The position numbers were made by a program, and so were the translations under genes. The notes below the pieces were generated by a model. That model made no database searches and was not told the DNA's origin. It saw only the letters and a list, made by a program, of their open reading frames with translations. 64,000 nt of DNA from a virus (lineage: Duplodnaviria; Heunggongvirae; Uroviricota; Caudoviricetes). Position 1 is the first letter of the stretch. The number at the start of each line of letters is the position of its first letter. Below, piece after piece: positions 18,219-32,930 of this stretch. Where the stretch lies: the IMG/VR virus record IMGVR_UViG_3300009709_000001, positions 317,336 through 381,335 of that record; one strand, written 5' to 3'.

Positions 18219-18230
18219 ATATCTCGTAAG

Positions 18231-18252
18231 AATGGGGCATTTCTGCCCCATT
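18231..18252 (-). terminator. 9-bp hairpin after VWA gene (weak T tract)
   Basis: aatggggca-tttc-tgccccatt, 4 nt downstream of the stop of 18257..19456. Confidence 0.45.
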
Positions 18253-18256
18253 GTGT

Positions 18257-19456
18257 TTACCTATTGTTTTGGGGCGAATGGTTGTCCGGCTCGTACCAAG
18301 CAGTCATACCAAACGGTGCGACCAGCCGTCGTTGCGTATCGCCGTGGATGAGGAACAGAGTGTCGCAGTAATTCTCGTCACCCCAGCTACCGCAAGGATA
18401 GCCGTCAGTCATCACGATGAAGCGTTCCGGCATCACATCATTTTCCTTCATGTAATCCCAGTTCACTGTGAAGTCGGTACCGCCACCACCCTTCAGATCG
18501 TAGGTATCGATGTCATCGATATTTTCCGGCGTAAAGATCTGCGGGTTGTAAACGCGAGTGTCGAATGTCCAAACGGTAAGCTTGAAGTCCATGAACTGTT
18601 CCATGATGCCCTTGACTTCGCCGAGCAAGTCACGCAGCATGTCTTCAGACATAGAACCCGATGCGTCAATTGCCACAGCGGCCTCGACACGTACATCTTC
18701 CTTCGTACCCGGCAGGTAGATGCCGCTCGACTGAGACTTACGCGAGCAGCGACTCCAGGTGAAGTCATTGCGAATCATCGACTGAATCTTCATGTTCAGG
18801 ATTTCACGCCAATCCATCTGCGGATTGGTCAAATCCTTCAGCATGCGCTTCACACCTGCAGGCACATTGCCAGCGCCAGCTGCCTTCGAAGCTTGCATCA
18901 CGGCAGCACGGATCTCGTCGCCCAGGATACGGCGTTCTTCCTCTGTCATCGGCTCACCCTTGCCATCGCCTGGCTCCAAGTGGATGTCGAATTCGGGGAA
19001 CTTCTGGCTCGGGTCCTTCATTAGGGCTTCGTACACTTCTTCAGCGAACATACCCTTGAACTTGGGATCGAAGCAGGCAGTCACACCAGATGTCTTGGGG
19101 TCGGGGATCTTACCGACACTGTTCTCGTGGAGTTCCCAGTTGATGACGTAGTCGGCAGCAGCGTTCCAAGCCTTCGGCTTACGCGAACCACGACGACCCA
19201 TGTGGTCATAGACGCAGTGTTCCACTTCGTGCGCAACCAAGAAAATCGTTTCTTGTTTGTTCAACTTCAGAATGAAGTTGCGATTGAAGTAGAAACTGCG
19301 ACCATCGGTGGCAGCAGTGGGGCACCAGCCATCGGGATCGTCGGTAGCGTCCTTCAGAATCAAGCGAGTGGCCAACGTGCCCCAGAACGGCTGTTGCAGA
19401 AGAAGAGAGATGCGTGCTCGCGTCAGCTGTTCAAATGCTTTTTCCTGATCGGTCAT
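18257..19456 (-). CDS. VWA-domain protein with N-terminal HExxH metallopeptidase-like region (MoxR partner, CobT-like)
   Basis: AHEVEHCVYDH (HExxH) and MIDAS AIDASGSMS (DxSxS); GC-rich; own promoter and hairpin. Confidence 0.8.
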   Translation of the reverse strand: MTDQEKAFEQLTRARISLLLQQPFWGTLATRLILKDATDDPDGWCPTAATDGRSFYFNRNFILKLNKQETIFLVAHEVEHCVYDHMGRRGSRKPKAWNAAADYVINWELHENSVGKIPDPKTSGVTACFDPKFKGMFAEEVYEALMKDPSQKFPEFDIHLEPGDGKGEPMTEEERRILGDEIRAAVMQASKAAGAGNVPAGVKRMLKDLTNPQMDWREILNMKIQSMIRNDFTWSRCSRKSQSSGIYLPGTKEDVRVEAAVAIDASGSMSEDMLRDLLGEVKGIMEQFMDFKLTVWTFDTRVYNPQIFTPENIDDIDTYDLKGGGGTDFTVNWDYMKENDVMPERFIVMTDGYPCGSWGDENYCDTLFLIHGDTQRRLVAPFGMTAWYEPDNHSPQNNR

Positions 19457-19483
19457 AAATTTCCTTATTTGTTGCTTAATTAC

Positions 19484-19513
19484 ACTGTAGCATCACCATT
19501 GACGGACTGTCAA
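19484..19513 (-). promoter_or_regulatory. sigma70-type promoter TTGACA-18-TACAGT
   Basis: Minus strand cccTTTGACAgtccgtcaatggtgatgcTACAGTgtaat; AAGGA before ATG 19456. Confidence 0.6.
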
Positions 19514-19731
19514 AGGGTAGCAAACTTGAGTGCGAAGAGTGTGGCTGTCTCTTCATTCTCAAACTCAATATATGGTGTCCCAAAATGGTCAATCATTCCG
19601 TACTCTGCCTTCATTTTTCTCCAGAACTCCTTAACCTCTTCAGAATCAATATCACCATTGGTTCCATAGATGCTGACATAGTTATTCCAGGCTTTGCCAA
19701 ATTGACCTTCGTATACATTCACGAGATGCAT
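19510..19731 (-). CDS. EEDA-helix small protein family member (73 aa)
   Basis: C-terminus YIEFENEETATLFALKFATL. Confidence 0.6.
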   Translation of the reverse strand: MHLVNVYEGQFGKAWNNYVSIYGTNGDIDSEEVKEFWRKMKAEYGMIDHFGTPYIEFENEETATLFALKFATL

Positions 19732-19741
19732 TTTATTCTTA

Positions 19742-19963
19742 TTATGTCCATTTTAGGAGGAAGATTGTTACATCCTCCTCGGTTTCAAATTCGAGTTTAT
19801 GTCGATCAACAACTCTGATACATTTGATGTCTCTGAATGCTCGTTCAAGGCCTCCTTTGCCATCGAATTGAACTTGATCGACAAAGTTAGACCATGCGTT
19901 ATTATTCTTTTCGGAGGCCTTGGGACCGGTAACAGTTAGGTATCGAGACATTATACTGACCAC
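19742..19963 (-). CDS. EEDA-helix small protein family member (73 aa)
   Basis: C-terminus LEFETEEDVTIFLLKWT. Confidence 0.6.
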   Translation of the reverse strand: MVSIMSRYLTVTGPKASEKNNNAWSNFVDQVQFDGKGGLERAFRDIKCIRVVDRHKLEFETEEDVTIFLLKWT

Positions 19964-20169
19964 CTCAGAAGAAATGCAGTTGCATCCTCATCTTCTTCAA
20001 ATTCAATATATGGTGTGTCCCACAAATTATGTCCACCGAATTTTGCCAACTCTTCGAAGATGTCGTAGTAGGGTGTCGGACTATTTTCCGAAATATAATC
20101 ACGAAATCTTAACCATTCGGTTCGGTGTAAACCACCATTGACTATATCTAATCTTGTTGTCATGCCCAT
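19951..20169 (-). CDS. EEDA-helix small protein family member (72 aa)
   Basis: C-terminus YIEFEEDEDATAFLLRWSV. Confidence 0.6.
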   Translation of the reverse strand: MGMTTRLDIVNGGLHRTEWLRFRDYISENSPTPYYDIFEELAKFGGHNLWDTPYIEFEEDEDATAFLLRWSV

Positions 20170-20357
20170 CTGAGCTTGAAGATCAATTCCTGTTCTTCAG
20201 ACTGGAACGGAATTTTTAGCCAATTAATATTCGTACCTAGGTTGAATTGTCGACCTTGATCAACTAACCAGGCCTCGTATTCAAGGCCAGTACCGCCAAT
20301 ATACTTACGAAAATAATCATAAGCATTTTCGAAATAGGGTTGTATCGGGAGTGCCAT
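20160..20357 (-). CDS. EEDA-helix small protein family member (65 aa)
   Basis: C-terminus IPFQSEEQELIFKLRWA. Confidence 0.6.
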   Translation of the reverse strand: MALPIQPYFENAYDYFRKYIGGTGLEYEAWLVDQGRQFNLGTNINWLKIPFQSEEQELIFKLRWA

Positions 20358-20418
20358 AATTTATATCATATATTTTAACAAAATTAGTTATAGTCTGCAA
20401 GATATAAACATAAATACT

Positions 20419-21405
20419 ATGGTAAATGTATTCTATAAGGAATTTCTAAAGATGAAGACACACAAATGCGAAAATATGACTTGCCAGAATAAATCCGAAA
20501 AGGATAAGTACGGCAATTATAAAAGATACTGCTCGGATGAATGCAAAAAGGTATCGAGATTATTAAAATTCAAAGAAACATATCAACATAAAGATATGGG
20601 TGCAATATTACAAAAACGAAAAGATACATTATTGTCTAAGTATGGTGTCGAGAACGCAGCATGTATATCTGAGGTCAAAGAAAAACTGCGTATAACCACT
20701 ACTAATACCGCGCAAATCCGCACAATAAAAACTAAAGAGACAAACTTAGCACGTTACGGCGTTGAGAGTACAAATTCCCTTGAGTCTGTTCAAGAGAAGA
20801 AAAAGCAAACCTTACTTGAAAGGTACGGCGTAGATCATCAACTTAAAATACCAGGAGTAGCTGCCGAAGTTTCGAAGAAGAATTCGGAAAATGCTAAGGA
20901 GCGACTAGTAAAGTCGAAGAAGACCAATCTTGAAAGATATGGATGTGAAAATCCATCTGCAAACGAAGATATCAAACTCAAAAGAACTGCAACTATGATT
21001 GAACGGTTCGGTGTAGAGAATGCATCGCAGAATGCTAAGGTTCAGTCGAAAAAAGTCAGGGCCGGCTTTAAGACTAAAAAATATACTTTCCCGTCCGGAA
21101 GAATAGACCATGTCCAAGGATATGAACCTTTGGCACTCAGTCAACTTTTACAGGAGGGATATCAAGAAAATGACATTATTACGCTTGATGAATTGATGCC
21201 GGAACTATGGTATCATGAATCGGATGGATCTAAGCGCAGATATTTCCCAGATATTTATATCCCGAAAGAAAATCTATTAATCGAAGTTAAATCCGAATAT
21301 ACTTATCGCGGATTTATTGGTTGGCTAATAACCAACCAATTAAAAGAGCAATGTGCCAGAGATGCTGGATTTAATTATCGACTAATGATAATGGTAAAGA
21401 AATAA
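20419..21405 (+). CDS. repeat-rich PD-(D/E)xK-like homing endonuclease candidate (328 aa)
   Basis: Five ~35-aa modules (KYGVENAAC, RYGVESTNS, RYGVDHQLK, RYGCENPSA, RFGVENASQ); C-terminal YFPDIYIPKENLLIEVKSEYT (D...ExK); AT-rich, antisense to the gene array; alternative start at 20452. Confidence 0.55.
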   Translation: MVNVFYKEFLKMKTHKCENMTCQNKSEKDKYGNYKRYCSDECKKVSRLLKFKETYQHKDMGAILQKRKDTLLSKYGVENAACISEVKEKLRITTTNTAQIRTIKTKETNLARYGVESTNSLESVQEKKKQTLLERYGVDHQLKIPGVAAEVSKKNSENAKERLVKSKKTNLERYGCENPSANEDIKLKRTATMIERFGVENASQNAKVQSKKVRAGFKTKKYTFPSGRIDHVQGYEPLALSQLLQEGYQENDIITLDELMPELWYHESDGSKRRYFPDIYIPKENLLIEVKSEYTYRGFIGWLITNQLKEQCARDAGFNYRLMIMVKK

Positions 21406-21432
21406 AAAAGCCCGGTTTAACCGGGCTTTTTG
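21405..21432. terminator. bidirectional rho-independent terminator
   Basis: aaaaagcccgg-tttaa-ccgggcttttt between convergent genes 20419..21405 (+) and 21484..22710 (-). Confidence 0.8.
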
Positions 21433-21483
21433 TTGATAACTTACTTTGCAAAGGCGTTGTAAGTCATTGATTTTAAAGGATTT

Positions 21484-22710
21484 TCAGTCCTCGAGGATGA
21501 ACTTGCCGTACTTGTCGTGGAACGACTTGAACTGCTTCAGCTCACGGTGGTTGATCGGCAACGAATAGTCCCGCAGCGCGGTCTTGGCTCCCAGAACGAT
21601 CATCTCAGTCTGGAAGTTGTCCATCATGAACTTGAAGAAGTGGTCCACGCACTCGTGCCATTGCTTCATGTCGAAGCCGTCGCCATCGCCCTTGCCGTTG
21701 TTCTGCTTGGCCTTCAGCGACCATTCCTGCAGCGTGTAGCAGAGGCTGATGGTCAGCGAGTACATGGCAGACAGGTCCTTGACGTTCAGCGTCTTTTCCT
21801 TGCCCATCAGCACGTCTTCCGACTTCGGCATCTTCGCCGCAACGCGACGGTGTGCAGTGAACTCGGTAGCGTTGCCTTCACCGACGGTACCTGCCACGAG
21901 GGAGGTGTTCATCGATTCCGGCAGGCTGTCGCTGATCAGCTGGGACACGAAAGTCCAGGAACGCGGCGTAGCGAACGCCTTGTCCGGCGACTTCGGATCG
22001 AAGTCGAACAGCTTCTGCTTGTGGTGCGACAGGAAGCCCACAACGTCCGGGTGAACCTTGGCGCCGATCGCCCACTTCTGCCAGTCTTCGAAGTTCGAAG
22101 TCATCTCGATGTGAACCAGACGGTTTGCCAGCGGGCTGGGCATACGGTAGGTCACGCCCTTGTCGCTGTCGCGGTTACCAGCGCACAGCATGGACACGCC
22201 ATCGGGCAGGTGGTATTCGCCGACACGACGGTTCAGGATGAGCTGGTAAGCAGCAGCCTGCACGCTCGGAGGAGCAGCGTTGATTTCGTCCAGGAACAGG
22301 ATCGCGTTGCTCATGTCGTAAGCGGCGCGGATCGACAGGGCGTATTCGCGAGCAGTTTCAGCTTCTTCGCTGACGTCCTTCTCGTCGAACTTGGCCGCAG
22401 CGGCCTCTGCCTTCTCGACGTCCTTCTTCTTGATGGACTTCGGCAGGTCGGCAGGATGTGCCCACTTCATGGTCTTGGTCTCGACGTCGAAGTAGGGGAT
22501 GCCCTTGATGTCAGTCGGTTCGAGCAGCAGCAAGCGCATGTCGATCACCTTGCGACCGGCCTTTGCGCCGATTTCAGCGATCAGTTCCGATTTGCCAATG
22601 CCCGGGGGACCCCAGATCATTGCGGGGCGGCGCACTTCCATGCAGCGCTCCAGAAGAGTCTTGACGTCCTTCGGACGTTCTTGACGGGAAGTAGAATGAT
22701 TTGCAGCCAT
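21484..22710 (-). CDS. MoxR-type AAA+ ATPase (CobS-like, 408 aa)
   Basis: Walker A GPPGIGKS, Walker B ILFLDEINAA; GC-rich; own promoter and terminator. Confidence 0.85.
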   Translation of the reverse strand: MAANHSTSRQERPKDVKTLLERCMEVRRPAMIWGPPGIGKSELIAEIGAKAGRKVIDMRLLLLEPTDIKGIPYFDVETKTMKWAHPADLPKSIKKKDVEKAEAAAAKFDEKDVSEEAETAREYALSIRAAYDMSNAILFLDEINAAPPSVQAAAYQLILNRRVGEYHLPDGVSMLCAGNRDSDKGVTYRMPSPLANRLVHIEMTSNFEDWQKWAIGAKVHPDVVGFLSHHKQKLFDFDPKSPDKAFATPRSWTFVSQLISDSLPESMNTSLVAGTVGEGNATEFTAHRRVAAKMPKSEDVLMGKEKTLNVKDLSAMYSLTISLCYTLQEWSLKAKQNNGKGDGDGFDMKQWHECVDHFFKFMMDNFQTEMIVLGAKTALRDYSLPINHRELKQFKSFHDKYGKFILED

Positions 22711-22751
22711 GTGTTCTCCAGTTGGCGGGGTTAAAATTGCGTTGTGTCTGT

Positions 22752-22780
22752 ATTATGTCTGCATGCAACGAATGAGTCAA
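22752..22780 (-). promoter_or_regulatory. sigma70-type promoter TTGACT-17-CATAAT
   Basis: Minus strand gccgtTTGACTcattcgttgcatgcagaCATAATacag; ~40-nt leader with GGAGA before ATG 22710. Confidence 0.7.
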
Positions 22781-22806
22781 ACGGCAAATGCAGGTACTTG
22801 GGGAAA

Positions 22807-23478
22807 TTAAGAATAATGACCACCTTTTAGGATTTTCATAATTCGAATTTGGTCTGCTTCGTATTTGGCCTGTGCAGCCTCGAAGTCTTCATCGGCCCAT
22901 TGTTGGGCAAGGCTGGGCCAATCTTCCAAAAAGATAATTACATCCCAGCCCCATTCTTCGTTACCACCTCCCCCACTGGAAGTTTTAATTCCAACAAAGT
23001 TGAGGAGATTACTCATCGGGTAAGAACCAAAATTGGTAGTACGGCTTAGGGAACCTCGACAATAACCAGTCCACCCGGGATAACCGGTAGGTTTGTTCTT
23101 ATCTTGAGCACACCAATTCATGAGTCCCCAATCAGGACGTACATGAGAATTTGATGCATGCTTAAATGATGACATATCGAGCTTGATATTTGATATGTCA
23201 TCATTTGCGTGGAAAAAGTCTCCCCACTTGCCAGCCCTAATTGTATTACACCAATCCATAAGTTGTTTCTGGTGCTTTTGAATCCAGGGGCAGATTTCAT
23301 GAAGGTAACTTACTTCTTTCTTCAGTTCGCGAAGTTCCTTCAGAATGTTCGATACAGTCTTTTCGTACCTTGCTTGTGCTACCCGTTTCTTACGGAGTTC
23401 AAGAAGGTGTTCACCATATTCAGCTCTATCTGTGAATATAGAACCAGTGAAAGGACATTTATTAACGATGATTCTCAT
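22807..23478 (-). CDS. hypothetical protein (223 aa)
   Basis: ORF track; no motif recognised. Confidence 0.55.
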   Translation of the reverse strand: MRIIVNKCPFTGSIFTDRAEYGEHLLELRKKRVAQARYEKTVSNILKELRELKKEVSYLHEICPWIQKHQKQLMDWCNTIRAGKWGDFFHANDDISNIKLDMSSFKHASNSHVRPDWGLMNWCAQDKNKPTGYPGWTGYCRGSLSRTTNFGSYPMSNLLNFVGIKTSSGGGGNEEWGWDVIIFLEDWPSLAQQWADEDFEAAQAKYEADQIRIMKILKGGHYS

Positions 23479-24087: not shown

Positions 24088-24128
24088 TAGTCATAAGATA
24101 AATATAGTTTAGCAGGAGAATAGAAATT

Positions 24129-24881
24129 ATGCAAGAATTTAAACCAACATGGTTATACATAAAGAAACACAATATCACTGGTTTACAATATTTCGGTAAA
24201 ACAAATAGATATCATCCCGAGAAATATATAGGGTCTGGAAAATACTGGCTAGCGCATTTAAGGGTGCATGGAAAAGATATATCAACAACATGGTGTGAAC
24301 TATTCTTCGACCAGCAAACATTGGTAGAATATGCGCTTAAATTTTCAAAAGAAAATAATATAGCCGAATCAAGTGAATGGGCCAATCTTAAGTTTGAAAA
24401 CGGTCTTGATGGAGGTCACAGTGGCGTGGCAAGGAGCGATGAGACAAAGGAAAAATTATCTAAGAAAAATAGAGGAAAACGACATACAAAGGAAACCAAA
24501 AATAAAATTTCAGATTCCAATAAAGGTAAACATAACATGGTAAGACCTGCAGATGTCGGAGCCAAAATTTCGAAAGCACTGACCGGTAAAAAACGAGGTC
24601 CAATGCCAGATGAAACAAAAAGAAAAATTGGTGATGCAAATAAAGGAAAACCTTCATCAAAGAAGGGTATACCAATGCCAGATGAAACAAAAAGAAAAAT
24701 TGGTGATGCAAATAAAGGAAAACCTTCATCAAAGAAGGGTATACCTAGGTCAGCTATTGATAAAGATAAAATCAGAAAAGGCCAAGAAAATGTACCCGAA
24801 ATAACTTGCCCACACTGTCATATTTCAAATAAACCCGGATGTATGAAAAGATGGCACTTTGATAATTGTAAAAAGAAATAA
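24129..24881 (+). CDS. GIY-YIG-type (Seg-like) homing endonuclease (250 aa)
   Basis: WLYIKKHNITGLQYFGKTN; NUMOD3-like repeats (RSDETKEKLS, HTKETKNKIS, PMPDETKRKIG x2); C-terminal CPHC...KRWHFDNC zinc finger; AGGAGA RBS. Confidence 0.75.
   Translation: MQEFKPTWLYIKKHNITGLQYFGKTNRYHPEKYIGSGKYWLAHLRVHGKDISTTWCELFFDQQTLVEYALKFSKENNIAESSEWANLKFENGLDGGHSGVARSDETKEKLSKKNRGKRHTKETKNKISDSNKGKHNMVRPADVGAKISKALTGKKRGPMPDETKRKIGDANKGKPSSKKGIPMPDETKRKIGDANKGKPSSKKGIPRSAIDKDKIRKGQENVPEITCPHCHISNKPGCMKRWHFDNCKKK
24600..24744. repeat. perfect 72-bp tandem duplication (2 copies) inside the endonuclease gene
   Basis: caatgccagatgaaacaaaaagaaaaattggtgatgcaaataaaggaaaaccttcatcaaagaagggtatac at 24601-24672 and 24673-24744; duplicates 24 aa PMPDETKRKIGDANKGKPSSKKGI. 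Confidence 0.95.
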
Positions 24882-24903
24882 GGTGACTTAGTCACCTTAT
24901 TTA
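24879..24903. terminator. bidirectional hairpin terminator
   Basis: taaggtgac-tta-gtcacctta (9 bp); T-rich flank on the minus strand (tttcttttt), weaker (ttt) on the plus strand; lies between convergent genes. Confidence 0.65.
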
Positions 24904-24921: not shown

Positions 24922-25545
24922 TTAGAAGAACAAGCCGCCGAATGCAATGCAGATAATCGTCAGGACGAGCATGACCCAGAAGCCAAGCCATTCGCCGTCG
25001 GTTTTGAGGTCGCCAAAGCTCTTCGGGATGCGAATCAGCTTCGTGCCCTTGAAGAATCCACCCAGGTACGAATATTCCACCTTCTCGTAACGGGCAGTGA
25101 ACAGGCGCTTGTAGATCACACGCACCATCGTCAGGCCCACCGTCAAGAAGATCACACCGTAGAGTGCCTTCATCAGCGCTGCACCAGCGACCTTCCAGAT
25201 GATGATCAGTGCGGTCAGCTTACCCGCGTCAGACTTGAGGAAGTCATTTATCGTGACATTCAGTTCCTTGGCTGCGATGCCCATGGCCTTGGCAAAGCCT
25301 TCGGCTGCGGCAGCGGCCTGTTGGCCCCAGGTTGCAGCGAGTGTCATTGTGGCACCCACATCCTTGGCGGGCGCAGCAGCATCGGCGACACCCTTGGCCT
25401 GTTGTGCGACGATCTGGGCAGCGTGTGCCTTCAGGTCTGCGATCTGGGCATCGGACAGACCCGATGTATCGATATTCGTGCTAGCCGCGAAAGAGGTTGC
25501 GGCGCACAGTGCGAGTGCCATACCGGCGATCATTTTGCGAAACAT
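24922..25545 (-). CDS. membrane protein with signal peptide (207 aa), GC-rich
   Basis: MFRKMIAGMALALCAATSFAAS; C-terminal TMs (LTALIIIWKVAGAALM, GVIFLTVGLTMV, LGFWVMLVLTIICIAFGGLFF); AAGGA RBS. Confidence 0.65.
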   Translation of the reverse strand: MFRKMIAGMALALCAATSFAASTNIDTSGLSDAQIADLKAHAAQIVAQQAKGVADAAAPAKDVGATMTLAATWGQQAAAAAEGFAKAMGIAAKELNVTINDFLKSDAGKLTALIIIWKVAGAALMKALYGVIFLTVGLTMVRVIYKRLFTARYEKVEYSYLGGFFKGTKLIRIPKSFGDLKTDGEWLGFWVMLVLTIICIAFGGLFF

Positions 25546-25583
25546 GGTTTTCCTTTCAGAACAAAGTTTTAACTGACAAATGC

Positions 25584-25613
25584 ATTATAGGGCCACCAGG
25601 GCCCTATAGTCAA
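25584..25613 (-). promoter_or_regulatory. sigma70-type promoter TTGACT-18-TATAAT whose spacer is a 9-bp hairpin
   Basis: Minus strand cagTTGACTatagggccctggtggcccTATAATgcatttg; tatagggcc/ggccctata stem spans the spacer and -10. Confidence 0.65.
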
Positions 25614-25641
25614 CTGAGTTTTACGTCAATTGGAACTGGTT

Positions 25642-26820
25642 TTACCAGTCGCTGCTGCCGGAATCGCTGCTGGAGCTGCTGCCGGAGTCGGACGAACCCC
25701 AGCTGCTGCCGCTGTCGCTGCTCGAACTGGACCAGCTGCTGGAACGGCTGCTGCTGTCGTCATCGTCACGGCTGGACGAATAGCTCGGAGCAGGGGCCGG
25801 CGCGTAGTACGGTGCAGGGGCGGGAGCCGGTTCCGGGGCAGAGCTGGAGCTGAACTCGGAAGTACCACCCCACTCGGCGTCGTCCTTGGCCGAGCTGCTG
25901 AAGGTCGGTGCAGGTGCCGTGATCACGGGCGGGGTGTACGTCGAAGCACTCGAACTGTAGTCACTGGTGCCCGAGGATTCCTCGCGGCGTCGACGAGTCA
26001 CAGTGTCATCATCATGACGATGACGGAGCGCATCGCTGATCATGTTGCCAGCAACCACACCACCTGCCACTGCCACACCCGTTTCCAGAGCCGACGGACC
26101 GGTATGGACCACGGTCGGAGGAACATAGGTGGGTGCCGGAGGAGCCGTATAGGTGCGCGACGGACGGGACCATGCAGCCGGGCTCGGTGCCGGAGGCGTC
26201 GAATAGGTGCTGCGAGTGGTACCCATACCGCTACTGGCCGTGGTCACAGAGGAGGGAGCCGAGGTAGCGGTTGCAGTCACAGGACTGGAGAAGTCGACGC
26301 CACCGTCTTCAGACTTGGTCCGGCGATACCAGTAGTAGCCCAGGCCACCCAGCGTGAACAGGAACAGCAGAACCAGGAACTTGGAACCGAACGAGCTGCC
26401 TTCATCGGCCGGCTTCGTTACCGCCACGGGTTGTGCCTGCACTTGAGGTGCAGCTTGGACGACCACGGGAGGAGGGGGCGGCACATAGGCCTGGACCACC
26501 GGCTGACGGGCGCCGGCGATGTCGCGTTCCATCTTGGCGAACAGGCGCGAACCGAGCACGTCACCCTTGTGATCGTATGCGCGGACGGCGTCCAGTTCAC
26601 GCTGGGCGAGATTGGGGTCTCGTTCCAGACACATGATCGTTGCCGCATTCAGCAGGTGAGCGCGAGCGCTATCCGGGCGCGACACCAGGATCTCATTCAC
26701 GTAATTGCGCGCTTGGGCGCAGTTGCCGTTTTCCAGGGCGGATTCGACCTGCTTCGGACTGGGGAGGGCCATTGCGGTCGCAGACAGCAAGGCAAGGGAA
26801 AGGGACAGAATACGCTTCAT
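25642..26820 (-). CDS. signal peptide + helical-repeat (TPR-like) domain + TM + Ser/Pro/Thr-rich tail (392 aa), GC-rich
   Basis: MKRILSLSLALLSATAMA; TM FLVLLFLFTLGGLGYYWY; tail ends SSSSDSGSSDW; AAGGAG 6 nt before ATG. Confidence 0.65.
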   Translation of the reverse strand: MKRILSLSLALLSATAMALPSPKQVESALENGNCAQARNYVNEILVSRPDSARAHLLNAATIMCLERDPNLAQRELDAVRAYDHKGDVLGSRLFAKMERDIAGARQPVVQAYVPPPPPVVVQAAPQVQAQPVAVTKPADEGSSFGSKFLVLLFLFTLGGLGYYWYRRTKSEDGGVDFSSPVTATATSAPSSVTTASSGMGTTRSTYSTPPAPSPAAWSRPSRTYTAPPAPTYVPPTVVHTGPSALETGVAVAGGVVAGNMISDALRHRHDDDTVTRRRREESSGTSDYSSSASTYTPPVITAPAPTFSSSAKDDAEWGGTSEFSSSSAPEPAPAPAPYYAPAPAPSYSSSRDDDDSSSRSSSWSSSSSDSGSSWGSSDSGSSSSSDSGSSDW

Positions 26821-26838
26821 GTGTAGCTCCTTGGGGGT

Positions 26839-26865
26839 GAAAACTGGGGCCCCGAAGGGCCCCAG
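26839..26865 (-). terminator. rho-independent terminator
   Basis: Minus strand ctggggccc-ttcg-gggccccag followed by ttttc, 3 nt after the stop of 26869..27966. Confidence 0.8.
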
Positions 26866-26868
26866 GGG

Positions 26869-27966
26869 TCAGATTGCAGCCATCCAGTCGTAGTTGGCGC
26901 GGCCGTACACCTCACGGGTGAACACCACGACCGTCTGCGCCGGCGTACCTTCGTCGACCACGTAAGTGAACGTACCCGCTTCCGGTTCGATGCGCTTCAG
27001 GTGCTTCGGATTCAGCTCCAGGGTGAAGCTGTCGTCCTTGTCTTCCGGGCAGCCGGCCGACTCGCCAACGCTGATGTTCAGCTCTTCGCTGGCCACCGGG
27101 CTTCCGCGCCACGTGTCGGGGTAGATGCGGTTGGTGTCGATCGCCTTGCCTTCGCGGATGATGCTGACCTTGTGGCGCATGCTGCTGTCGGCGAACGGTT
27201 TCGCGTTGAGCAGTTCCAGCACTTGGTGCGGCGTCTCGTTGTAGCGGTTCATGTCTTCGACCAGCGCCTTCAGCATGTCGAAGTTGAAGCTTTCGTACAG
27301 CATGGCCAGACGGCAGATCGTCGGGATGTGCGTCTTGTCGTTGAGGCGATCGTTGCAGTATTCTTCGATGAACGCTGCGTCGATGCCCTTGTACTCCAGG
27401 CAGTAGAAGACACGACCCGGCCGATTGCGCATGTGGCTGTTGACGCGGTACTTGTCGTTGCAGGTCAGGATGAACAGCTTCTTGCTCGGGAACACGCCGT
27501 CGAGCAGGGTCAGGATAGCTTCCTGTTCCTTTTCGCCGAACACCTTCTCGAACTCGTCGAACACGACCACGCACGGCTGGTTGATGTTCTGAATGAAGGC
27601 GTTGAAGCCGTCACCGCAGAAGTCGCTGTTGATGACCAGGACGGGCATGTTGTGCGCTTCAACCGCGTTCTTGGCGATGAGCTTGGCCAACATCGTCTTG
27701 CCCGAACCCTTTTCGCCGGTCAGCAGCACACCAGTGCTGTTCGGGCGATCGAGGAAGGTGCTCATGATGCGATCAGCACGGCCGTGGATGTTGCCGTAGA
27801 TCTTGCCGTCGATGTTGAAGTTGTTGATGGGCTTCAAGAAGAAGCCTCGGCCCGGCATTGCACCGACCGTGTACGTGCCCGGGGGCAGCGTCTCGTGCAT
27901 GTCGAGCGCCGCTTTCGGGGTGGGGAAAAACAAGCCGCCTTCGCGGGAGAAAATGGTGCTACTCAT
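26869..27966 (-). CDS. AAA+ ATPase (365 aa), GC-rich
   Basis: Walker A LLTGEKGSGKT, Walker B VVVFDEFEK. Confidence 0.8.
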   Translation of the reverse strand: MSSTIFSREGGLFFPTPKAALDMHETLPPGTYTVGAMPGRGFFLKPINNFNIDGKIYGNIHGRADRIMSTFLDRPNSTGVLLTGEKGSGKTMLAKLIAKNAVEAHNMPVLVINSDFCGDGFNAFIQNINQPCVVVFDEFEKVFGEKEQEAILTLLDGVFPSKKLFILTCNDKYRVNSHMRNRPGRVFYCLEYKGIDAAFIEEYCNDRLNDKTHIPTICRLAMLYESFNFDMLKALVEDMNRYNETPHQVLELLNAKPFADSSMRHKVSIIREGKAIDTNRIYPDTWRGSPVASEELNISVGESAGCPEDKDDSFTLELNPKHLKRIEPEAGTFTYVVDEGTPAQTVVVFTREVYGRANYDWMAAI

Positions 27967-28021
27967 CGCTTCTTTCTTGGTTGCGGGATAAATCCCTGGT
28001 TAAATTTGTTTAACAGTCTCT

Positions 28022-28050
28022 ATTTTATGCAGACGCGTGCGGTGACGCAA
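28022..28050 (-). promoter_or_regulatory. sigma70-type promoter TTGCGT-17-TAAAAT
   Basis: Minus strand cagTTGCGTcaccgcacgcgtctgcaTAAAATagag. Confidence 0.55.
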
Positions 28051-28056
28051 CTGATT

Positions 28057-28287
28057 TTATAGGTTGTAGTTTCTGATCCAGGAAGCCGTTTCTTCGTTGT
28101 CGGTATACAACATAATTTTCGAATGCGGATCGTAACCCTGCTTTTCGATAATATATGTTTTCGAATCAACGGAATCCTTCAGAGAGCGGAAGAAATCCGC
28201 CATTTCCAAAAGATTCTCCATATTGATCTGGCCAAAGTTGAAACCAAACTTGGCCTTCCGTGCTTTCACTTCAACAAAGACACTCAT
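28057..28287 (-). CDS. hypothetical protein (76 aa)
   Basis: ORF track; YTDNEETASWIRNYNL is a weak EEDA-helix match. Confidence 0.5.
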   Translation of the reverse strand: MSVFVEVKARKAKFGFNFGQINMENLLEMADFFRSLKDSVDSKTYIIEKQGYDPHSKIMLYTDNEETASWIRNYNL

Positions 28288-28364
28288 AGCGTACCCACCA
28301 CAGTTTCATCTTTTAATTTCCAAATGCCATCGCCAATTATTGGTCCAAAAAGATAAATAAACAT

Positions 28365-29192
28365 ATGAATACTCCATTTCTAAATAACAAATATACTGCC
28401 CGATATTATAAAATTATTAATACCGTTTTAGAATTAAATCGAAAGAAATTAAAAAGAAATAACCCTGATTACAGGTATTATGAATTGCATCATATTATTC
28501 CCAAATCATTAGGTGGTGACAATTCTTCTGCAAATCTTATACCTTTGACACCAAGGGAACATTATATATGCCACCTTTTACTCACCCGAATGACTGAAGG
28601 TAAAAATAGATATAAGATGCTCTGTGCATTCAACAGAATAACAAATAGAGGCCAGGCAGAAATTAAAAATTCTAGATTATATAATTCTATTCGAGAAGAC
28701 TTTTCGAAATCGCAGGCCGAAAATTATAAAGGTGATAAAAATCATTTTTATGGAAAGACTCACACAAAAGAAATCAGAGATTATTTAGCTGAGGTATGTC
28801 CACGATTCGGTAAAGATAATGGCAATTTTGGTAAATCATTATCTCAATCACAAAAAGATGCAATTTCGAAAAGTAATAAATCCAGAAAAATTATACCTCC
28901 ACCTCCGCAACTCGGTTCAAAAAATCATTTTTCTAAGATTTATAAAATAATCGACCCAACCGGTAATAAATTTACAATAAAATGCATGAGTGAATTTTGT
29001 GAAAGAAACAATCTTTGTAGTCGAACAATGATTTTATTTAAGGACAAAGGAAAAATTCCTGAATTGCAATTCGAACGAGAATATCGTGTAAAGAATCTCC
29101 AAGCAAAGAAGAACTGTGAAGGTTATTCTATTATTTCAATGACCTCGCCCCTTGGTCCTTTTCCATCAATCGACCATACAGTTACCGGATAA
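28365..29192 (+). CDS. HNH homing endonuclease (275 aa)
   Basis: LHHIIPKSLGGDNSSANLIPLTPREHYICHLLL; a 70-nt sample at the 5' end is 23% G+C by hand count; 3' end overlaps the macro-domain gene by 70 nt (convergent). Confidence 0.8.
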   Translation: MNTPFLNNKYTARYYKIINTVLELNRKKLKRNNPDYRYYELHHIIPKSLGGDNSSANLIPLTPREHYICHLLLTRMTEGKNRYKMLCAFNRITNRGQAEIKNSRLYNSIREDFSKSQAENYKGDKNHFYGKTHTKEIRDYLAEVCPRFGKDNGNFGKSLSQSQKDAISKSNKSRKIIPPPPQLGSKNHFSKIYKIIDPTGNKFTIKCMSEFCERNNLCSRTMILFKDKGKIPELQFEREYRVKNLQAKKNCEGYSIISMTSPLGPFPSIDHTVTG

Positions 29193-29626
29193 GTAACTGT
29201 TTCTTCAATAATGCTCTTAATTATATTCCACGAACCTCCGCCGAGGCCAGCACCAATAAACGGAATATGAATTTCCTTGGGTTGAAGATCTGCCATGCTT
29301 TCGAAGCCAGCATTTAGGTAATCCTCAACTTGTTGAAAACAAGTCTGAACTGCGTCATAACTTGTATGACGACCTGGACCACCAAACCCGTCTTGTGTCA
29401 CGGCATTCCAAATCTTGAGATTGATCGTTGCCAGAGATGGATATGCATTACCGAGTTTAAGCTTACCGGCTTCATATAGCTCACGGTAATCAAGATACAC
29501 ACTCGGATAAAGATTCTTGACTCCGAGCGCAACACCCGAACCCATCACACCTTGTGCGTTACAACCATGGACAATATGTCCGGCTGTGACATTGAACAAA
29601 TTACCGGTTTTGACTTGGATCTTCAT
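29123..29626 (-). CDS. macro-domain protein (ADP-ribose binding/hydrolase type, 167 aa)
   Basis: GHIVHGCNAQGVMGSGVALGVK and FIGAGLGGG. Confidence 0.8.
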   Translation of the reverse strand: MKIQVKTGNLFNVTAGHIVHGCNAQGVMGSGVALGVKNLYPSVYLDYRELYEAGKLKLGNAYPSLATINLKIWNAVTQDGFGGPGRHTSYDAVQTCFQQVEDYLNAGFESMADLQPKEIHIPFIGAGLGGGSWNIIKSIIEETVTYPVTVWSIDGKGPRGEVIEIIE

Positions 29627-29636
29627 TTCTTACCTT

Positions 29637-30092: not shown

Positions 30093-30544
30093 TATTCGAT
30101 CCTTTGGTTGAGTGTTTTGGTTACATCTTCGATCAGAATGTCCTCGGGGATCCATTCGACCTTGTGACTTTCGTACACACGGGTATAGAACTCGCTGCTG
30201 CCGAACAGATCGTGCACAAATTCATGAGCACAATCACCGAAGTCTTCGGTGTCGAGATATTCGGCAATGTTCTCATCGGGCATTGCTTCCGGAGGATGCC
30301 TCTTGAATAGTGTGCGCATTGCAGCAACGTAGGTCTTTTGCTCCCTGTCATTAGGCTCATACATATTACCGAAACCAGCCGGCCAGTTGTTCTTCGATTT
30401 GTGTAGAAGGGCAAGTTCGACCAACAACTTGACTTGAGGAAGAGTAAGACCTTCGGTAATGGTTGTGTTGTAACTATCACCGTCATTTTCCCATGACGTG
30501 ACAGTCAATCGGTAACCCTTAGGGATTCGTGTTTGGACGCTCAT
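30092..30544 (-). CDS. hypothetical protein (150 aa)
   Basis: ORF track; 4-nt overlap upstream. Confidence 0.55.
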   Translation of the reverse strand: MSVQTRIPKGYRLTVTSWENDGDSYNTTITEGLTLPQVKLLVELALLHKSKNNWPAGFGNMYEPNDREQKTYVAAMRTLFKRHPPEAMPDENIAEYLDTEDFGDCAHEFVHDLFGSSEFYTRVYESHKVEWIPEDILIEDVTKTLNQRIE

Positions 30545-30759
30545 TTCTTACCTTTCAGTTTTTCTACTACCTTTTCCATATCGTATAATGCCTTGCATTC
30601 AGGTGGCATACCGATACTTCCTACGACTGCCATACAAGTGGTGCAGCGATAACTGATTCCACTTGAGATATCGAATTCTGCAATACTTCCACAGAGCAAC
30701 TCGATGTCAGGCTCATTACTCGGTTCTATATAAGACCAATCAGGATTTGATTTCCACAT
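30541..30759 (-). CDS. small Cys-rich protein (72 aa)
   Basis: ORF track; CGS...CTTC...PEC. Confidence 0.5.
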   Translation of the reverse strand: MWKSNPDWSYIEPSNEPDIELLCGSIAEFDISSGISYRCTTCMAVVGSIGMPPECKALYDMEKVVEKLKGKK

Positions 30760-30762
30760 CTT

Positions 30763-31035
30763 TTATAAATTCTTTCCGGAGAGTTTCGCAATTATTTGTT
30801 CTTCTTCAATAAATTTCTTCGCTTCGGTTATGAACGTAAGTAGCTCATTCGGACTTACCTTAGTGCTTAGGCTGAAATTACCCTGAGACATAATCAGTTC
30901 GCCATTGCTCTTGATTGCTATTCTAACATCCTTACTGGCATAACCAGTACTTGCATCACACTGTTGGACTTCAATGCCGATTCGATCGGATTGACCTTCC
31001 ATCTCATTAACCGTTAAATACCGTACAGTTGTCAT
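30763..31035 (-). CDS. hypothetical protein (90 aa)
   Basis: ORF track. Confidence 0.55.
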   Translation of the reverse strand: MTTVRYLTVNEMEGQSDRIGIEVQQCDASTGYASKDVRIAIKSNGELIMSQGNFSLSTKVSPNELLTFITEAKKFIEEEQIIAKLSGKNL

Positions 31036-31112
31036 TGTGTTTGTGTGCGTGTGGCGTTGCGTATTGTGCGTTGGAATTTAACGTTAAAACCGTGCAATTT
31101 AGCGTGGCTGCT

Positions 31113-31307
31113 TTAGATTCTGCCCTGTAGCTTTAAAAAGGTATAGCGCTCTTGCAAAGCTTCGTTAAACTCTTCGAGTGTCCAACCCCTCATTTCGCAA
31201 ATCTTGGTTAGTACTGCCGCATCTGTTATCGACGTGTTCATTCGATAAATTGCAAGTTCATTTCGCAATACATCAAAATCACACTTTACAATAGGTGAAT
31301 GGTCCAT
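31113..31307 (-). CDS. hypothetical protein (64 aa)
   Basis: ORF track. Confidence 0.5.
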   Translation of the reverse strand: MDHSPIVKCDFDVLRNELAIYRMNTSITDAAVLTKICEMRGWTLEEFNEALQERYTFLKLQGRI

Positions 31308-31334
31308 GCAACATTATTGCACGGACCATCGAAA

Positions 31335-31359
31335 ACTACAACAGGGCCAAGGGCCCTGT
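31335..31359 (-). terminator. rho-independent terminator of the SPFH operon
   Basis: Minus strand acagggcc-ctt-ggccctgt followed by tgtagttttc, 5 nt after the stop at 31365. Confidence 0.7.
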
Positions 31360-31364
31360 GTTTC

Positions 31365-32612
31365 TTAGCGCTTGTTGGTTGCTGCGCCGCCCTTGACCGA
31401 CAAGTCGATGCCCATTTCACGAGCAGTCTTTGCCGTCATCAGGTCCACCAGATCAGTTGCACGGCTGGCCGAACCACCCGAACCCGATGCGCCCATCACC
31501 ACTTGCGGGCTCCAAGCACCCGGTTGTGCCTTCTCGATCGCCGCTGCGTACAGGCCGTTGATCTTGACCAGCGCTTCCAGCTTCTTGTCCAGTTGACCGT
31601 CAGCTTCCATGACCAGGCGCTTGCGAGTTGCTTCACCTTCACCGCGCAGCACTTCAGACTTCTTGAACGCTTCTGCTTCCTTGACTTGCGCTTCCGCGAT
31701 CGTCACTCGAGCTTGGGCTTCAGCAATCGTCTTCGCAGCCAGGGTCTTTTGTTCCCATTCGGCCTTGGCAGCGTTTGCCTTACCTTGAGCTTCGGCAGTC
31801 AGCGTATCCTGGTCGGCCTTCTTCGCAGTTGCGATGGCCACCACAGCCGCGTTCGTTGCCGCCTGTTGTTCCTGAATCTGCTTCTCGACACGGTCCTCGT
31901 ACTTGAAGCCCGAGATCGTCATCGGCAGCATCTGCACGTTGTACTTCTGCACATAGCTGGCCTGAGCACGCAGCGGAGCACCCTTTTCATCCTTGATGAT
32001 CTCGGTGACCGTCATGTCCTTTTCCACACCAGCGATGTCCTTGGCACGAACCACCACGCTTCGCGTCTTGTAGACGCCGTTCAGCGTTTGATCGTTCATG
32101 ATCTGCAGGAGTTCGTTGCGACGACCAGCTGCCGATTCGAACGAAGTCATCGTCGGACCGGAGAAGGTTGCAGCCGATTCCATGGAGCGTCGGATGGCTT
32201 GCAGCTCGAAGGCTTCGGCCGAACGGAACTCCTTGTGGATCTCGATCACGTCTTTCGGCGTCAGGGGCATCAGCCACGAGATGGAGCCGCAGAGTGCCGC
32301 GTTACCGCCGTCATAGAAACGAATCGCCAGACCAGCGGATGCTTGCGCATGAGCTTTGTCAGTGTCGTTCTTGGCGCAGGCCGGGTCGATGAACTTCAGT
32401 TCGTTACGACGCGGGTACTTGGTGACAGTGCCGAAGCCTTGCCATTTCCAGCCCGGGTCGGTATATACCGCCAGTTCGCCCGACATCGGGCTTTGGATCA
32501 CCATGATCTCCGATGCATCCAGGTTCTCCACCAGCATGGGCGCCGAGATCATCAGGAACAGGGCCACGAAAGCGGCACTGCCGCCAATCAAAACACGTTT
32601 CAAGGACATCAT
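31365..32612 (-). CDS. SPFH/band-7-like membrane protein (415 aa)
   Basis: N-terminal TM GGSAAFVALFLMISAPML, ~250-aa domain, then a long Ala/Glu/Lys coiled coil; family assigned from overall pattern, not one motif. Confidence 0.55.
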   Translation of the reverse strand: MMSLKRVLIGGSAAFVALFLMISAPMLVENLDASEIMVIQSPMSGELAVYTDPGWKWQGFGTVTKYPRRNELKFIDPACAKNDTDKAHAQASAGLAIRFYDGGNAALCGSISWLMPLTPKDVIEIHKEFRSAEAFELQAIRRSMESAATFSGPTMTSFESAAGRRNELLQIMNDQTLNGVYKTRSVVVRAKDIAGVEKDMTVTEIIKDEKGAPLRAQASYVQKYNVQMLPMTISGFKYEDRVEKQIQEQQAATNAAVVAIATAKKADQDTLTAEAQGKANAAKAEWEQKTLAAKTIAEAQARVTIAEAQVKEAEAFKKSEVLRGEGEATRKRLVMEADGQLDKKLEALVKINGLYAAAIEKAQPGAWSPQVVMGASGSGGSASRATDLVDLMTAKTAREMGIDLSVKGGAATNKR

Positions 32613-32857
32613 TCCTTCTTCTCCAGTTGTGCCTTACGGCGGTTGATTTCATCCAGTTCTTCGCGAAGGTGAACGTATTCACGCGCTTCTTCGAGCTCGT
32701 GCTCGGCAGCGTCGACCTTCACCTTCTGCTCCGTATCCTTGCGGAAATTCGGGAAAAGAGGAGTGCCGTACGCCAGCGGCAGACCGACTTGGGTTACGAA
32801 TAGAATCGCAACGCCAAACAGGGCGGCCAAAATCAGCAAATCAAGCAAAACAATCAT
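32609..32857 (-). CDS. small TM + coiled-coil protein (82 aa)
   Basis: MIVLLDLLILAALFGVAILFV; AGGAGA RBS; stop overlaps the SPFH ATG (ATGA). Confidence 0.6.
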   Translation of the reverse strand: MIVLLDLLILAALFGVAILFVTQVGLPLAYGTPLFPNFRKDTEQKVKVDAAEHELEEAREYVHLREELDEINRRKAQLEKKE

Positions 32858-32902
32858 TTTTCCATCTCCTGCGGCGCAAGCAAAATTGTTGACCGCAAAT
32901 GC

Positions 32903-32930
32903 ATTATAACAGTTACAGGAAGTGGGTCAA
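32903..32930 (-). promoter_or_regulatory. sigma70-type promoter TTGACC-16-TATAAT
   Basis: Minus strand ccagTTGACCcacttcctgtaactgtTATAATgcatttg; shares TATAATGCATTTG with the 25584 promoter. Confidence 0.65.

Follow-up and report, generated by a model that had tools for sequence, protein, structure and literature searches.

In the concept of Juhala and Hendrix, the morons of temperate phages are foreign units that one phage carries and its relatives lack at the same junction. The free-standing homing endonucleases of T4-like phages, which are of the seg and mob type, usually lie beside highly conserved genes. Codon usage in phage T4 itself is said to differ between expression classes, as reportedly described by Cowe and Sharp in 1991 (J Mol Evol 33:13). 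Gene-class codon usage has also been found in Shigella phage Sf14, where it is tied to phage tRNAs (Ross and Doore, 2025; PMC12482277). Finally, the group 2.2 jumbo phages are characterized by a MoxR AAA+/vWA-metallopeptidase pair, with a proposed role in virion assembly (Iyer et al., 2021; PMC7824862), and Acidianus two-tailed virus also has a MoxR-vWA pair (cited in PMC7824862). Here we analyzed a stretch of 64,000 nucleotides (the window; positions 317,336 to 381,335 of IMG/VR virus record IMGVR_UViG_3300009709_000001) in which a MoxR-VWA pair and several other GC-rich genes stand out as islands in an AT-rich phage genome. A sequence-only reading of the window had proposed two explanations: acquisition of these genes from a GC-rich host lineage, or codon selection that differs between expression classes. 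Our analysis favors the view, to which we give a probability of roughly 0.7, that the mosaic reflects translational codon selection on old, conserved phage genes combined with AT-rich endonuclease insertions, and not gene import.

The mean GC content of the window is 0.432, and sliding-window profiles revealed four blocks of 0.52-0.66 GC (18.0-19.4, 21.5-22.8, 25.0-28.0, and 31.4-32.8 kb) separated by troughs of 0.29-0.37, showing that the mosaic noticed in the sequence-only reading is real. The genes that reach 52-64% GC (VWA, MoxR, the 207-aa and 392-aa genes, AAA+, and the 82-aa/SPFH pair) all lie on the minus strand. They are given here with RtcB, a moderate member of the same codon class, and with a 222-aa gene that bears the same signature outside the region noted earlier (GC3, G+C content at third codon positions, with GC1 and GC2 for the first and second; Nc, effective number of codons; CAI, codon adaptation index).

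18257-19456, minus: VWA co-chaperone with N-terminal metallopeptidase-like domain (DUF2201_N + DUF2201), 399 aa (Pfam, PHROG); GC 0.535, GC3 0.65
21484-22710, minus: MoxR-type AAA+ ATPase, 408 aa (Pfam AAA/AAA_5, phrog_1297); GC 0.584, GC3 0.79, Nc 33.9
24922-25545, minus: conserved 207-aa protein (phrog_19575); GC 0.57, GC3 0.70
25642-26820, minus: predicted secreted or membrane protein, 392 aa (from its translation); GC 0.635, GC3 0.69
26869-27966, minus: AAA+ ATPase, 365 aa (phrog_2376), the most extreme gene; GC 0.592, GC3 0.86, Nc 31.0
31365-32612, minus: SPFH/Band 7 protein, 415 aa (Pfam, phrog_11908); GC 0.579, GC3 0.69, Nc 33.6
32609-32857, minus: 82-aa gene, overlapping the SPFH start and first of a two-gene unit; GC 0.52, GC3 0.60
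35619-36884, minus: RtcB RNA ligase; GC3 0.54, CAI-like index 0.56
3626-4294, minus: 222-aa gene, no Pfam match; GC3 0.68, CAI-like index 0.58

The family B DNA polymerase encoded by this phage shares 39-43% identity with its counterparts in Phosso, Atu_ph07, and the Rak2/121Q group, and we therefore assigned the window to the group 2.2 jumbo phages; it is part of a ~385-kb jumbo phage of the Rak2/PA5oct/Atu_ph07 type. Together with the polymerase, the MoxR-type ATPase and the DUF2201_N/DUF2201 protein identify the pair that is characteristic of this group. MoxR and VWA are adjacent in relatives and are separated in the window by a 2-kb spacer that holds an endonuclease gene.

Against a baseline of the 101 window genes of at least 80 aa (GC3 median 0.393, robust standard deviation (sd) 0.071), the GC-rich genes exceed the median by 3.0-6.5 robust sd. 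A two-component model described the GC3 distribution better than a single component (Bayesian information criterion -162.9 versus -144.7), but instead of two clean peaks the distribution has one main mode and a heavy upper tail. The enrichment is limited to coding sequence and ends exactly at gene boundaries, sparing the small neighbor gene at 22807-23478 (GC3 0.38). Per-gene values agree with the by-eye impression that VWA, MoxR, the 24922-27966 block, and the SPFH operon are GC-rich, and RtcB is so to the lesser degree that had been suggested. The hand counts were less accurate: the AAA+ gene has 59% GC instead of about 64%, a figure that matches the neighboring 392-aa gene and the peak 200-bp windows, and the most AT-rich homing endonuclease gene (28365-29192) has 32% GC instead of about 23%, its GC3 being 0.23. 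The gene at 13288-14055, also listed as GC-rich, is so through GC1 (0.65), with an ordinary GC3 (0.40), and the cupin gene of the earlier list was not located, as no cupin family was found among the 30 proteins scanned against Pfam.

In all GC-rich genes except the 392-aa gene, the excess resides at third positions (GC3 0.60-0.86 versus a median of 0.39), with GC1 moderately above (0.54-0.61) and GC2 close to (0.38-0.44) the values of typical genes. Nc is 31-34 for MoxR, AAA+, and SPFH and 40-42 for VWA and the 207-aa gene, compared to about 45-55 for typical genes; both the synonymous location of the bias and the reduced Nc are properties of a codon-optimised gene class. Within the set, CTG makes up 65% of leucine codons, CGC and CGT 89% of arginine, GGC and GGT 98% of glycine, and AAG 92% of lysine, yet GAA still accounts for 67% of glutamate, and TTA, AGA, GGG, TCA, ATA, CCA, and CTA are nearly absent. 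This dialect thus prefers CTG, CCG, TCG/AGC, AAG, CGY, GGY, and C-ending two-fold codons and avoids TTA, AGA, GGA/GGG, CGG, ATA, ACA, CCA, and TCA. When third bases were drawn from the N3 frequencies of the GC-rich set itself, observed and expected counts differed strongly (GGG 0 versus 43.7, CGG 3 versus 30.8, GAA 87 versus 30.2; chi-square p-values of 1e-8 to 1e-32 for most codon families tested), so the codon choices go beyond base composition, as in an optimised class. A CAI-like adaptation index trained on MoxR and VWA only gave 0.78 for AAA+, 0.73 for SPFH, 0.65 for the 207-aa gene, and 0.65 for the 392-aa gene (median 0.34), and scores of this height in genes outside the training pair show that the dialect is shared. 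Since most of the codons favored in this lineage have G or C as their last base, the genes stand out as GC islands. The 63.5% GC of the 392-aa gene is largely due to its amino acid composition, given its GC1 of 0.60 and GC2 of 0.61; its translation has the layout of a signal peptide, a TPR-like domain, a Pro-rich linker, one transmembrane helix, and a Ser/Thr/Pro/Asp-rich tail.

We compared all window proteins by tblastn and blastp to eight collinear relatives, obtained from a MoxR scan of viral contigs (L002-L009; 72-76% identity), and to the closest relative, reached via a look-up with the 392-aa protein (L169). Gene order is the same from ~8.5 to 42 kb in the collinear relatives. VWA occupies the same position in all nine relatives at 75-88% identity, and MoxR is 72-76% identical by tblastn in the collinear relatives (79-84% in global alignment, 74% in L004) and 48.5% identical to that of PA5oct. 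SPFH is 94% identical in L169 and 71% in L002, AAA+ orthologues stand at the same site with 52-74% identity, and orthologues of the 207-aa gene were found in L002, L007, L008, and L169. With 52-94% identity, the GC-rich genes are among the best-conserved proteins of the region, where most neighbors reach 35-65%. None of VWA, MoxR, AAA+, the 207-aa gene, and SPFH is therefore missing from its junction in the way of a moron, all being at the same positions in L002-L009 and/or L169. The 392-aa gene alone is restricted, being absent from L002-L009 and common to the window and L169, whose homologue at the same site is 50% identical; our first view, that this gene is unique to the window, was dropped once that homologue appeared. 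It has DUF2076/YgcG-like bacterial homologues of ~30% identity in Burkholderia and Limnohabitans and is the sole unit for which later acquisition stays plausible.

For MoxR, we found no close bacterial donor. Its nearest homologues are the syntenic viral orthologues (72-84%), no bacterial MoxR closer than ~50% turned up when 185,579 genomes of bacteria and archaea were scanned, and matches at that level sit on contigs of metagenome-assembled genomes (MAGs) that are probably viral, whereas bacterial isolate genomes reach 32-37%. No match to cultured phages came from a megablast with the 15-kb region. In every relative, GC3 of the GC-rich genes exceeds that of neighboring controls, although the size of the excess varies: MoxR versus control GC3 is 0.32 versus ~0.24 in L003, 0.48 versus ~0.27 in L005, 0.61 versus ~0.36 in L008, 0.75 versus ~0.35 in L002, 0.74 versus ~0.40 in L169, and 0.79 versus ~0.39 in the window. 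The sequence-only reading had itself stated that vertical inheritance as core genes of the same composition in all relatives would argue against acquisition from a GC-rich host lineage; since these are vertically inherited, syntenic core genes that are GC3-enriched relative to their neighbors in all relatives, with no close bacterial MoxR donor, that proposal fails. The idea that conserved genes are simply GC-richer was also discarded, as the well-conserved control genes at 12352-12687 (55-90% identity) and 13288-14055 (64-88%) have ordinary GC3.

The bias is also held by each lineage and not inherited. We compared the fraction of identical codons at identical residues to that expected from independent draws from each gene's codon usage. 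For MoxR, observed and expected fractions were 0.27 and 0.26 between the window and L003, 0.37 and 0.38 for L005, and 0.67 and 0.58 for L002, and control genes had a similarly small excess. MoxR of L002 and L003 are 90% identical as proteins and differ in GC3 (0.75 versus 0.32). Synonymous sites between relatives are essentially saturated, and saturation would have erased any relic of a transfer.

The same anomaly is seen in other jumbo phages. In PA5oct (NC_071039.1), GC3 is 0.67 for MoxR (the ATPase gene at 234078-235193) and 0.50 for VWA (238080-239264), against a genome median of 0.227, which places MoxR ~9.6 robust sd out. MoxR and VWA also exceed the local background in Atu_ph07 (0.54 and 0.47 versus 0.33), Phosso (0.77 and 0.77 versus 0.60), SCTP-2 (0.42 and 0.34 versus 0.20), and 121Q (0.34 and 0.24 versus 0.19). 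Among uncultured loci, GC3 of MoxR is above the neighbor median in 51 out of 52 and the highest of all in 23; GGY among glycine codons is raised in 52 out of 52, ATA among isoleucine codons is lowered in 52 out of 52, and C-ending two-fold codons are raised in 50 out of 52. The GC3 excess persists where MoxR proteins are only 30-48% identical. Preferred codons vary with the host, with CGT, GGT, ACT, and TCT in 121Q and CTT and TCT in Atu_ph07. For 121Q, using CAI weights from 25 Escherichia coli K-12 ribosomal-protein and rpoA genes, MoxR (0.61) and VWA (0.56) rank first and second among 19 neighbors, tail-tube genes included. A bias that is synonymous, codon-specific, host-specific, and in 121Q matched to the optimal codons of E. 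coli supports the second of the earlier proposals, codon selection that differs between expression classes.

In twelve marine-type loci (L011, L020, L024, L028, L029, L033, L037, L040, L041, L061, L064, and L066), AGA is kept and MoxR has not shifted to CGY; several of these loci have little GC3 excess, and GGY enrichment and ATA depletion are still present in them. This is consistent with hosts whose major arginine codon is AGA.

PA5oct offers a link to phage tRNAs. It encodes twelve tRNAs, with anticodons including TAA, TCT, TGG, TCC, TGA, and TGT (PMC7318152), which read TTA, AGA, CCA, GGA, TCA, and ACA, codons that are avoided by MoxR/VWA and favored by bulk genes (TTA 4% versus 51%, AGA 8% versus 46%, ACA 0% versus 48%). 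The other GC3 outliers of PA5oct (0.5-0.77, median 0.23) cluster in the 1-39 kb terminal repeat, an early and highly transcribed region (Lood et al., PMC7318152); in NC_071039.1 (7.5-38.5 kb, L172) they include the genes at 33964-34425 and 16712-17248 and a phosphatase at 15701-16195. Neither the 64-kb window nor any of ten related loci was found to contain tRNA genes.

The AT-rich half of the mosaic centers on three genes on the opposite strand:

20419-21405, plus: DUF7487 homing-endonuclease-like gene between VWA and MoxR, 328 aa (Pfam); GC 0.37, GC3 0.34
24129-24881, plus: NUMOD3 homing endonuclease gene, 250 aa (Pfam); GC 0.35, GC3 0.25
28365-29192, plus: HNH/NUMOD3 homing endonuclease gene, 275 aa (Pfam); GC 0.32, GC3 0.23

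All three sites are empty in L169, in which gene order and GC3 values are the same: the MoxR-VWA spacer is 352 bp there versus 2028 bp in the window, and the spacer after the 207-aa homologue is 82 bp and lacks the NUMOD3 gene. The DUF7487 gene is present in only some relatives. Nuclease or DNA-binding domain matches combined with presence and absence among close relatives mark these three as putative homing endonuclease genes, and they have the least optimised codons of the window (AAA 73%, AGA 49%, ATA 31%). Because they are absent from the closest relative, we regard them as insertions; judging from this distribution, the AT-rich endonuclease genes are the inserted, mobile parts of the region. 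The description of the locus as an AT-rich genome with GC-rich autonomous units embedded in it is thus inverted, as the embedded mobile units are these AT-rich genes. The accompanying claim that all endonucleases are AT-rich applies to the three; an HNH-domain gene at 15697-16305 (minus strand) has a GC3 of 0.56. This gene is conserved at 55-74% identity in all relatives and carries a conserved sigma70-like promoter of its own; in contrast to the AT-rich mobile endonuclease genes, it behaves like a resident. The NUMOD3 gene contains two identical copies of a 16-nt hairpin with its tail (CCTTCTTTGATGAAGG TTTTCCTTTA), at 24651-24666 and 24723-24738, 72 bp apart, probably reflecting a repeated NUMOD3 module.

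We also examined the transcription signals of the GC-rich genes, which the sequence-only reading had taken for the classic moron layout, each gene with its own sigma70-type promoter and most with a terminator. The candidate signals are:

19484-19513, minus: sigma70-like promoter of VWA, TTGACA-18-TACAGT, 10/12, with TG (motif score and conservation)
22752-22780, minus: sigma70-like promoter of MoxR, TTGACT-17-CATAAT (motif score and conservation)
25584-25613, minus: sigma70-like promoter of the 207-aa gene, TTGACT-18-TATAAT, 11/12 (conserved in L169 and L008)
32903-32930, minus: sigma70-like promoter of the 82-aa/SPFH unit, TTGACC-16-TATAAT, 11/12, with TG (motif score)
21405-21431, no strand assigned: hairpin terminator with 12-bp stem between the endonuclease gene and MoxR (A and T runs on its flanks)
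24876-24902, minus: hairpin terminator 3' of the 207-aa gene (hairpin search)
31341-31359, no strand assigned: palindromic hairpin terminator 3' of SPFH (hairpin search)

VWA, MoxR, the 207-aa gene, and the 82-aa/SPFH unit have sigma70-like sites matching at 10-11 of 12 positions, 28-46 nt upstream; AAA+ has a promoter-like site of 8/12 only, and the 392-aa gene has no site of its own. Terminator-like hairpins follow three of the units (MoxR, the 207-aa gene, and SPFH), the first of them plausibly bidirectional, given its flanking A and T runs. Between 17 and 34 kb, promoter-like sites are about as numerous as expected by chance (22 versus 21.4 +/- 4.6), and we nevertheless consider the promoters to be real because of their position and their conservation in relatives. 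A MoxR promoter of the form TTGACn-17-[C/T]ATAAT is found in seven phages, ~41 nt (40-61 nt) from the ATG, and VWA has a TTGAC-type site at the same distance in L169, L007, L008, L005, L003, and L009, making seven phages with the window, L002 being the exception. The MoxR 5' untranslated region (22711-22751) between promoter and ATG is likewise conserved (TTTTTAACC...CTGGAGAA), also in L169, L002, L008, L005, L003, and L009, and may be a translational enhancer or regulatory site. Upstream of MoxR/VWA in PA5oct, Atu_ph07, SCTP-2, and CBB, no clearly recognisable sigma70-like promoter was found. By these signals, the GC-rich genes are predicted to be conserved, mostly monocistronic transcription units. 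The layout of promoter plus terminator is therefore real for three or four units (four with a promoter, three with a hairpin), but it is not diagnostic of morons: equally strong promoter-like sites lie upstream of ordinary-GC genes at 5400, 41645, and 62022. PA5oct relies on the host RNA polymerase, with TTGAC/TATAATA promoters throughout (PMC7318152), and since sigma70-type promoters are general in this phage group, they are not a moron marker.

Long spurious antisense open reading frames (ORFs) over the GC-rich genes had been noticed, and ORFs of 257-457 aa indeed cover all five large ones, with GC1 of 0.66-0.82 in the antisense frames:

27001-28062, plus: spurious antisense ORF over the AAA+ gene, 353 aa (L168 1759-2820 in the public call)
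18251-19024, 21517-22734, 25630-26826, and 31299-32672, opposite to the GC-rich genes: further antisense ORFs (ORF list)

In the public (Logan) gene call of the same contig, the antisense 353-aa ORF was taken and the AAA+ gene (26869-27966, minus strand) was omitted. The antisense ORF of the 222-aa gene (3578-4270, plus strand) is longer than the gene itself.

Several neighboring genes deserve mention. The AAA+ ATPase is 50% identical to gp160 of Microbacterium phage Pumpernickel, its nearest cultured-phage homologue, which is located within a large array of tRNA genes, with an RtcB ligase 1.7 kb away (L001 8007-9071). Another homologue, phi92 gp190, overlaps a 'hypothetical tRNA' feature, and in the window the AAA+ gene is 7.6 kb from RtcB; the surroundings of these homologues hint at a link of this ATPase family to tRNA or RNA repair. 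A Macro-domain protein (29123-29626, minus strand), with a possible function in ADP-ribose binding or hydrolysis, is conserved in relatives, and the 3' end of its gene is overlapped over 70 bp by the HNH endonuclease gene at 28365-29192. A 352-aa gene without a Pfam match (11297-12355, plus strand) is 52-70% identical in L002, L005, L006, L009, and L169 and, although it is oriented the opposite way, is no insertion of the endonuclease type.

How, then, did the GC-rich genes come to differ from their surroundings? Recent horizontal acquisition, with each unit brought in as a moron, promoter and terminator included, from some GC-rich phage or bacterium and not yet ameliorated, would fit the moron-like layout and the composition unlike that of the neighbors, as well as the actinophage that is the best cultured-phage match of the AAA+ gene and the restriction of the 392-aa gene, with its ~30% identical bacterial homologues, to a subclade. 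We regard this origin as very unlikely, given that five out of six genes are at identical positions in collinear relatives and among the best-conserved proteins, that the MoxR-VWA pair is the hallmark of a whole jumbo-phage group (PMC7824862), and that MoxR matches only reach ~50% on probably viral MAG contigs and 32-37% in bacterial isolates. Moreover, a donor signature could not last with synonymous sites saturated, and the avoidance of GGG and CGG together with the retention of GAA is unlike plain GC-rich DNA. Saturation also speaks against an older version of this scenario, a relic of an ancient GC-rich donor that decays at lineage-specific speeds. The wide range of GC3 for the same gene among relatives (0.32-0.79) and the existence of bacterial MoxR-VWA systems would be compatible with such a relic, but it would have vanished, since saturation is seen even in the closest pairs examined; the excess persists at 30-48% MoxR protein identity, and it tracks optimisation markers that are independent of GC. 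We therefore rejected ancient un-ameliorated transfer as very improbable.

Two further explanations do not involve import. Every GC-rich unit in the window adjoins an endonuclease gene, and PA5oct has one between its ATPase and VWA genes, so the flanking homing endonucleases could have created recombination hot spots subject to GC-biased gene conversion. However, GC3 is the same in L169 (0.74, 0.65, 0.73), which has no endonuclease genes at these sites, and GGG and CGG are depleted although they end in G; on these two grounds we rejected endonuclease-driven conversion, to which we give almost no weight. It would also have to account for an enrichment that affects third positions only, ends at gene boundaries, and spares the gene at 22807-23478 (GC3 0.38). 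A restriction to coding sequence that stops at gene boundaries is what selection on a property of the mRNA or DNA might produce, with GC3-rich transcripts resisting AU-directed RNases or folding stably, or DNA avoiding AT-rich nuclease targets, and the region does encode RNA-repair and anti-defense-like functions (RtcB, the Macro-domain protein, and many endonucleases). Such selection leaves unexplained the choice of GGY over GGG, CGY over CGG, and GAA over GAG, as well as the universal loss of ATA, and in 121Q it is the AT-ending codons CGT, GGT, ACT, and TCT that are enriched, with a GC3 of only 0.24-0.34 and the highest CAI. We consider it improbable as the explanation of the mosaic, and it could be a contributor alongside decoding selection.

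We propose that a small, conserved set of resident genes (MoxR-VWA, AAA+, the 207-aa gene, and 82-aa/SPFH, with RtcB and a few others less so) is written in a biased codon dialect, most likely because of translational selection that tunes it to the abundant tRNAs of the host. Efficient or accurate decoding by host tRNAs would hold the set to the host dialect, and the remainder of the genome would drift AT-rich, partly supported by phage tRNAs. The driver would be how efficiently or accurately the genes are translated when expression is high or early; indirect indications of such expression are the conserved, near-consensus promoters and, in PA5oct, mass-spectrometric detection of the ATPase and the position of other GC3 outliers in the early, highly transcribed repeat. 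In the window phage the preferred codons would be those of its host. The three free-standing endonuclease genes, on the opposite strand, would have inserted beside conserved genes and deepened the AT troughs. Several observations weigh against this explanation. In Pectobacterium phage CBB (L087 9950-12687), MoxR and VWA have no GC3 excess and a mid-range CAI against the E. coli reference. The host-preferred codons of the window phage are extrapolated from relatives with known hosts, and in PA5oct the sole hint of abundance is that the ATPase was flagged in ESI-MS/MS (tandem mass spectrometry with electrospray ionization). The genes at 5050-5394, 41180-41638, and 61389-62000 have equally strong promoter-like sites and ordinary GC3. 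The 392-aa gene, with a GC content that stems mostly from its amino acids and its restriction to a subclade, possibly has another history. Finally, structural genes in 121Q and PA5oct are not codon-optimised, though high expression of these genes is expected. High expression as such thus does not account for everything; the time of expression, or the ability to do without phage tRNAs, may count for more than the amount of product.

A more speculative extension, which we put forward tentatively and think is rather less probable than not to hold, is that group 2.2 jumbo phages have two translational regimes, with a conserved set in the host dialect and the bulk of the genes, including structural genes, dependent on phage tRNAs. 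The conserved set would comprise MoxR-VWA, the AAA+ ATPase, SPFH, partly RtcB, and, in PA5oct, early terminal-repeat genes. By avoiding phage-tRNA codons, these genes would be translatable even where phage tRNAs are missing or have been disabled, such as just after injection or under attack by anticodon nucleases. If so, MoxR-VWA would act early or apart from the late programme, instead of or besides serving as a virion-assembly chaperone.

These results have several consequences. In an AT-rich phage, GC islands that have promoters of their own can readily be mistaken for morons or host-derived auxiliary genes, and here they appear to be the oldest residents. MoxR-VWA is the most codon-adapted pair of its neighborhood in most group 2.2 loci examined, and this adaptation marks the chaperone system as one that is produced either in very large amounts or at a time when only host tRNAs serve translation. 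In the papers searched, we found no mention of a codon or GC anomaly of MoxR-vWA, be it in PMC7824862 or in the PA5oct papers, and the ATPase and GC islands are not treated in the main texts of the latter. For uncultured jumbo phages in which bulk composition is uninformative, the codons preferred by this gene class could be used in host prediction. On the practical side, high GC3 leads gene callers to annotate antisense ORFs, as has already happened in the public call of this contig.

In comparison to the known systems, the GC-rich genes resemble morons in having their own promoters and terminators and a composition unlike that of their neighbors, and differ from them in being present in all relatives and in lacking close foreign homologues. 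The HNH, NUMOD3, and DUF7487 genes resemble the seg and mob endonucleases in being intergenic, beside highly conserved genes, and variably present in close relatives; unlike seg and mob, they are known from sequence alone and form the AT-rich half of a mosaic. The MoxR-VWA pair corresponds to that of group 2.2 in its two proteins (a DUF2201_N metallopeptidase-like plus VWA-like protein and a MoxR-type ATPase) and in a phage group that is the same by PolB. As in T4 and Sf14, gene groups with discretely different synonymous codons coexist in one genome, one fitting the tRNAs that the host provides and the other the codons that phage tRNAs decode. The contrast is far larger here (GC3 0.86 versus 0.39) and is visible as GC islands. 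In addition, the host-adapted class here is a small conserved set of chaperone, ATPase, and SPFH genes that is not defined by known timing, the structural genes of relatives are unadapted, and the link to tRNAs is shown for PA5oct only, the window having no tRNA genes. Both gene-class codon usage, in T4 and Sf14, and the MoxR-vWA pair were therefore known already, and what is described here is an unusually strong and phylogenetically broad example of the former, not a new kind of element.

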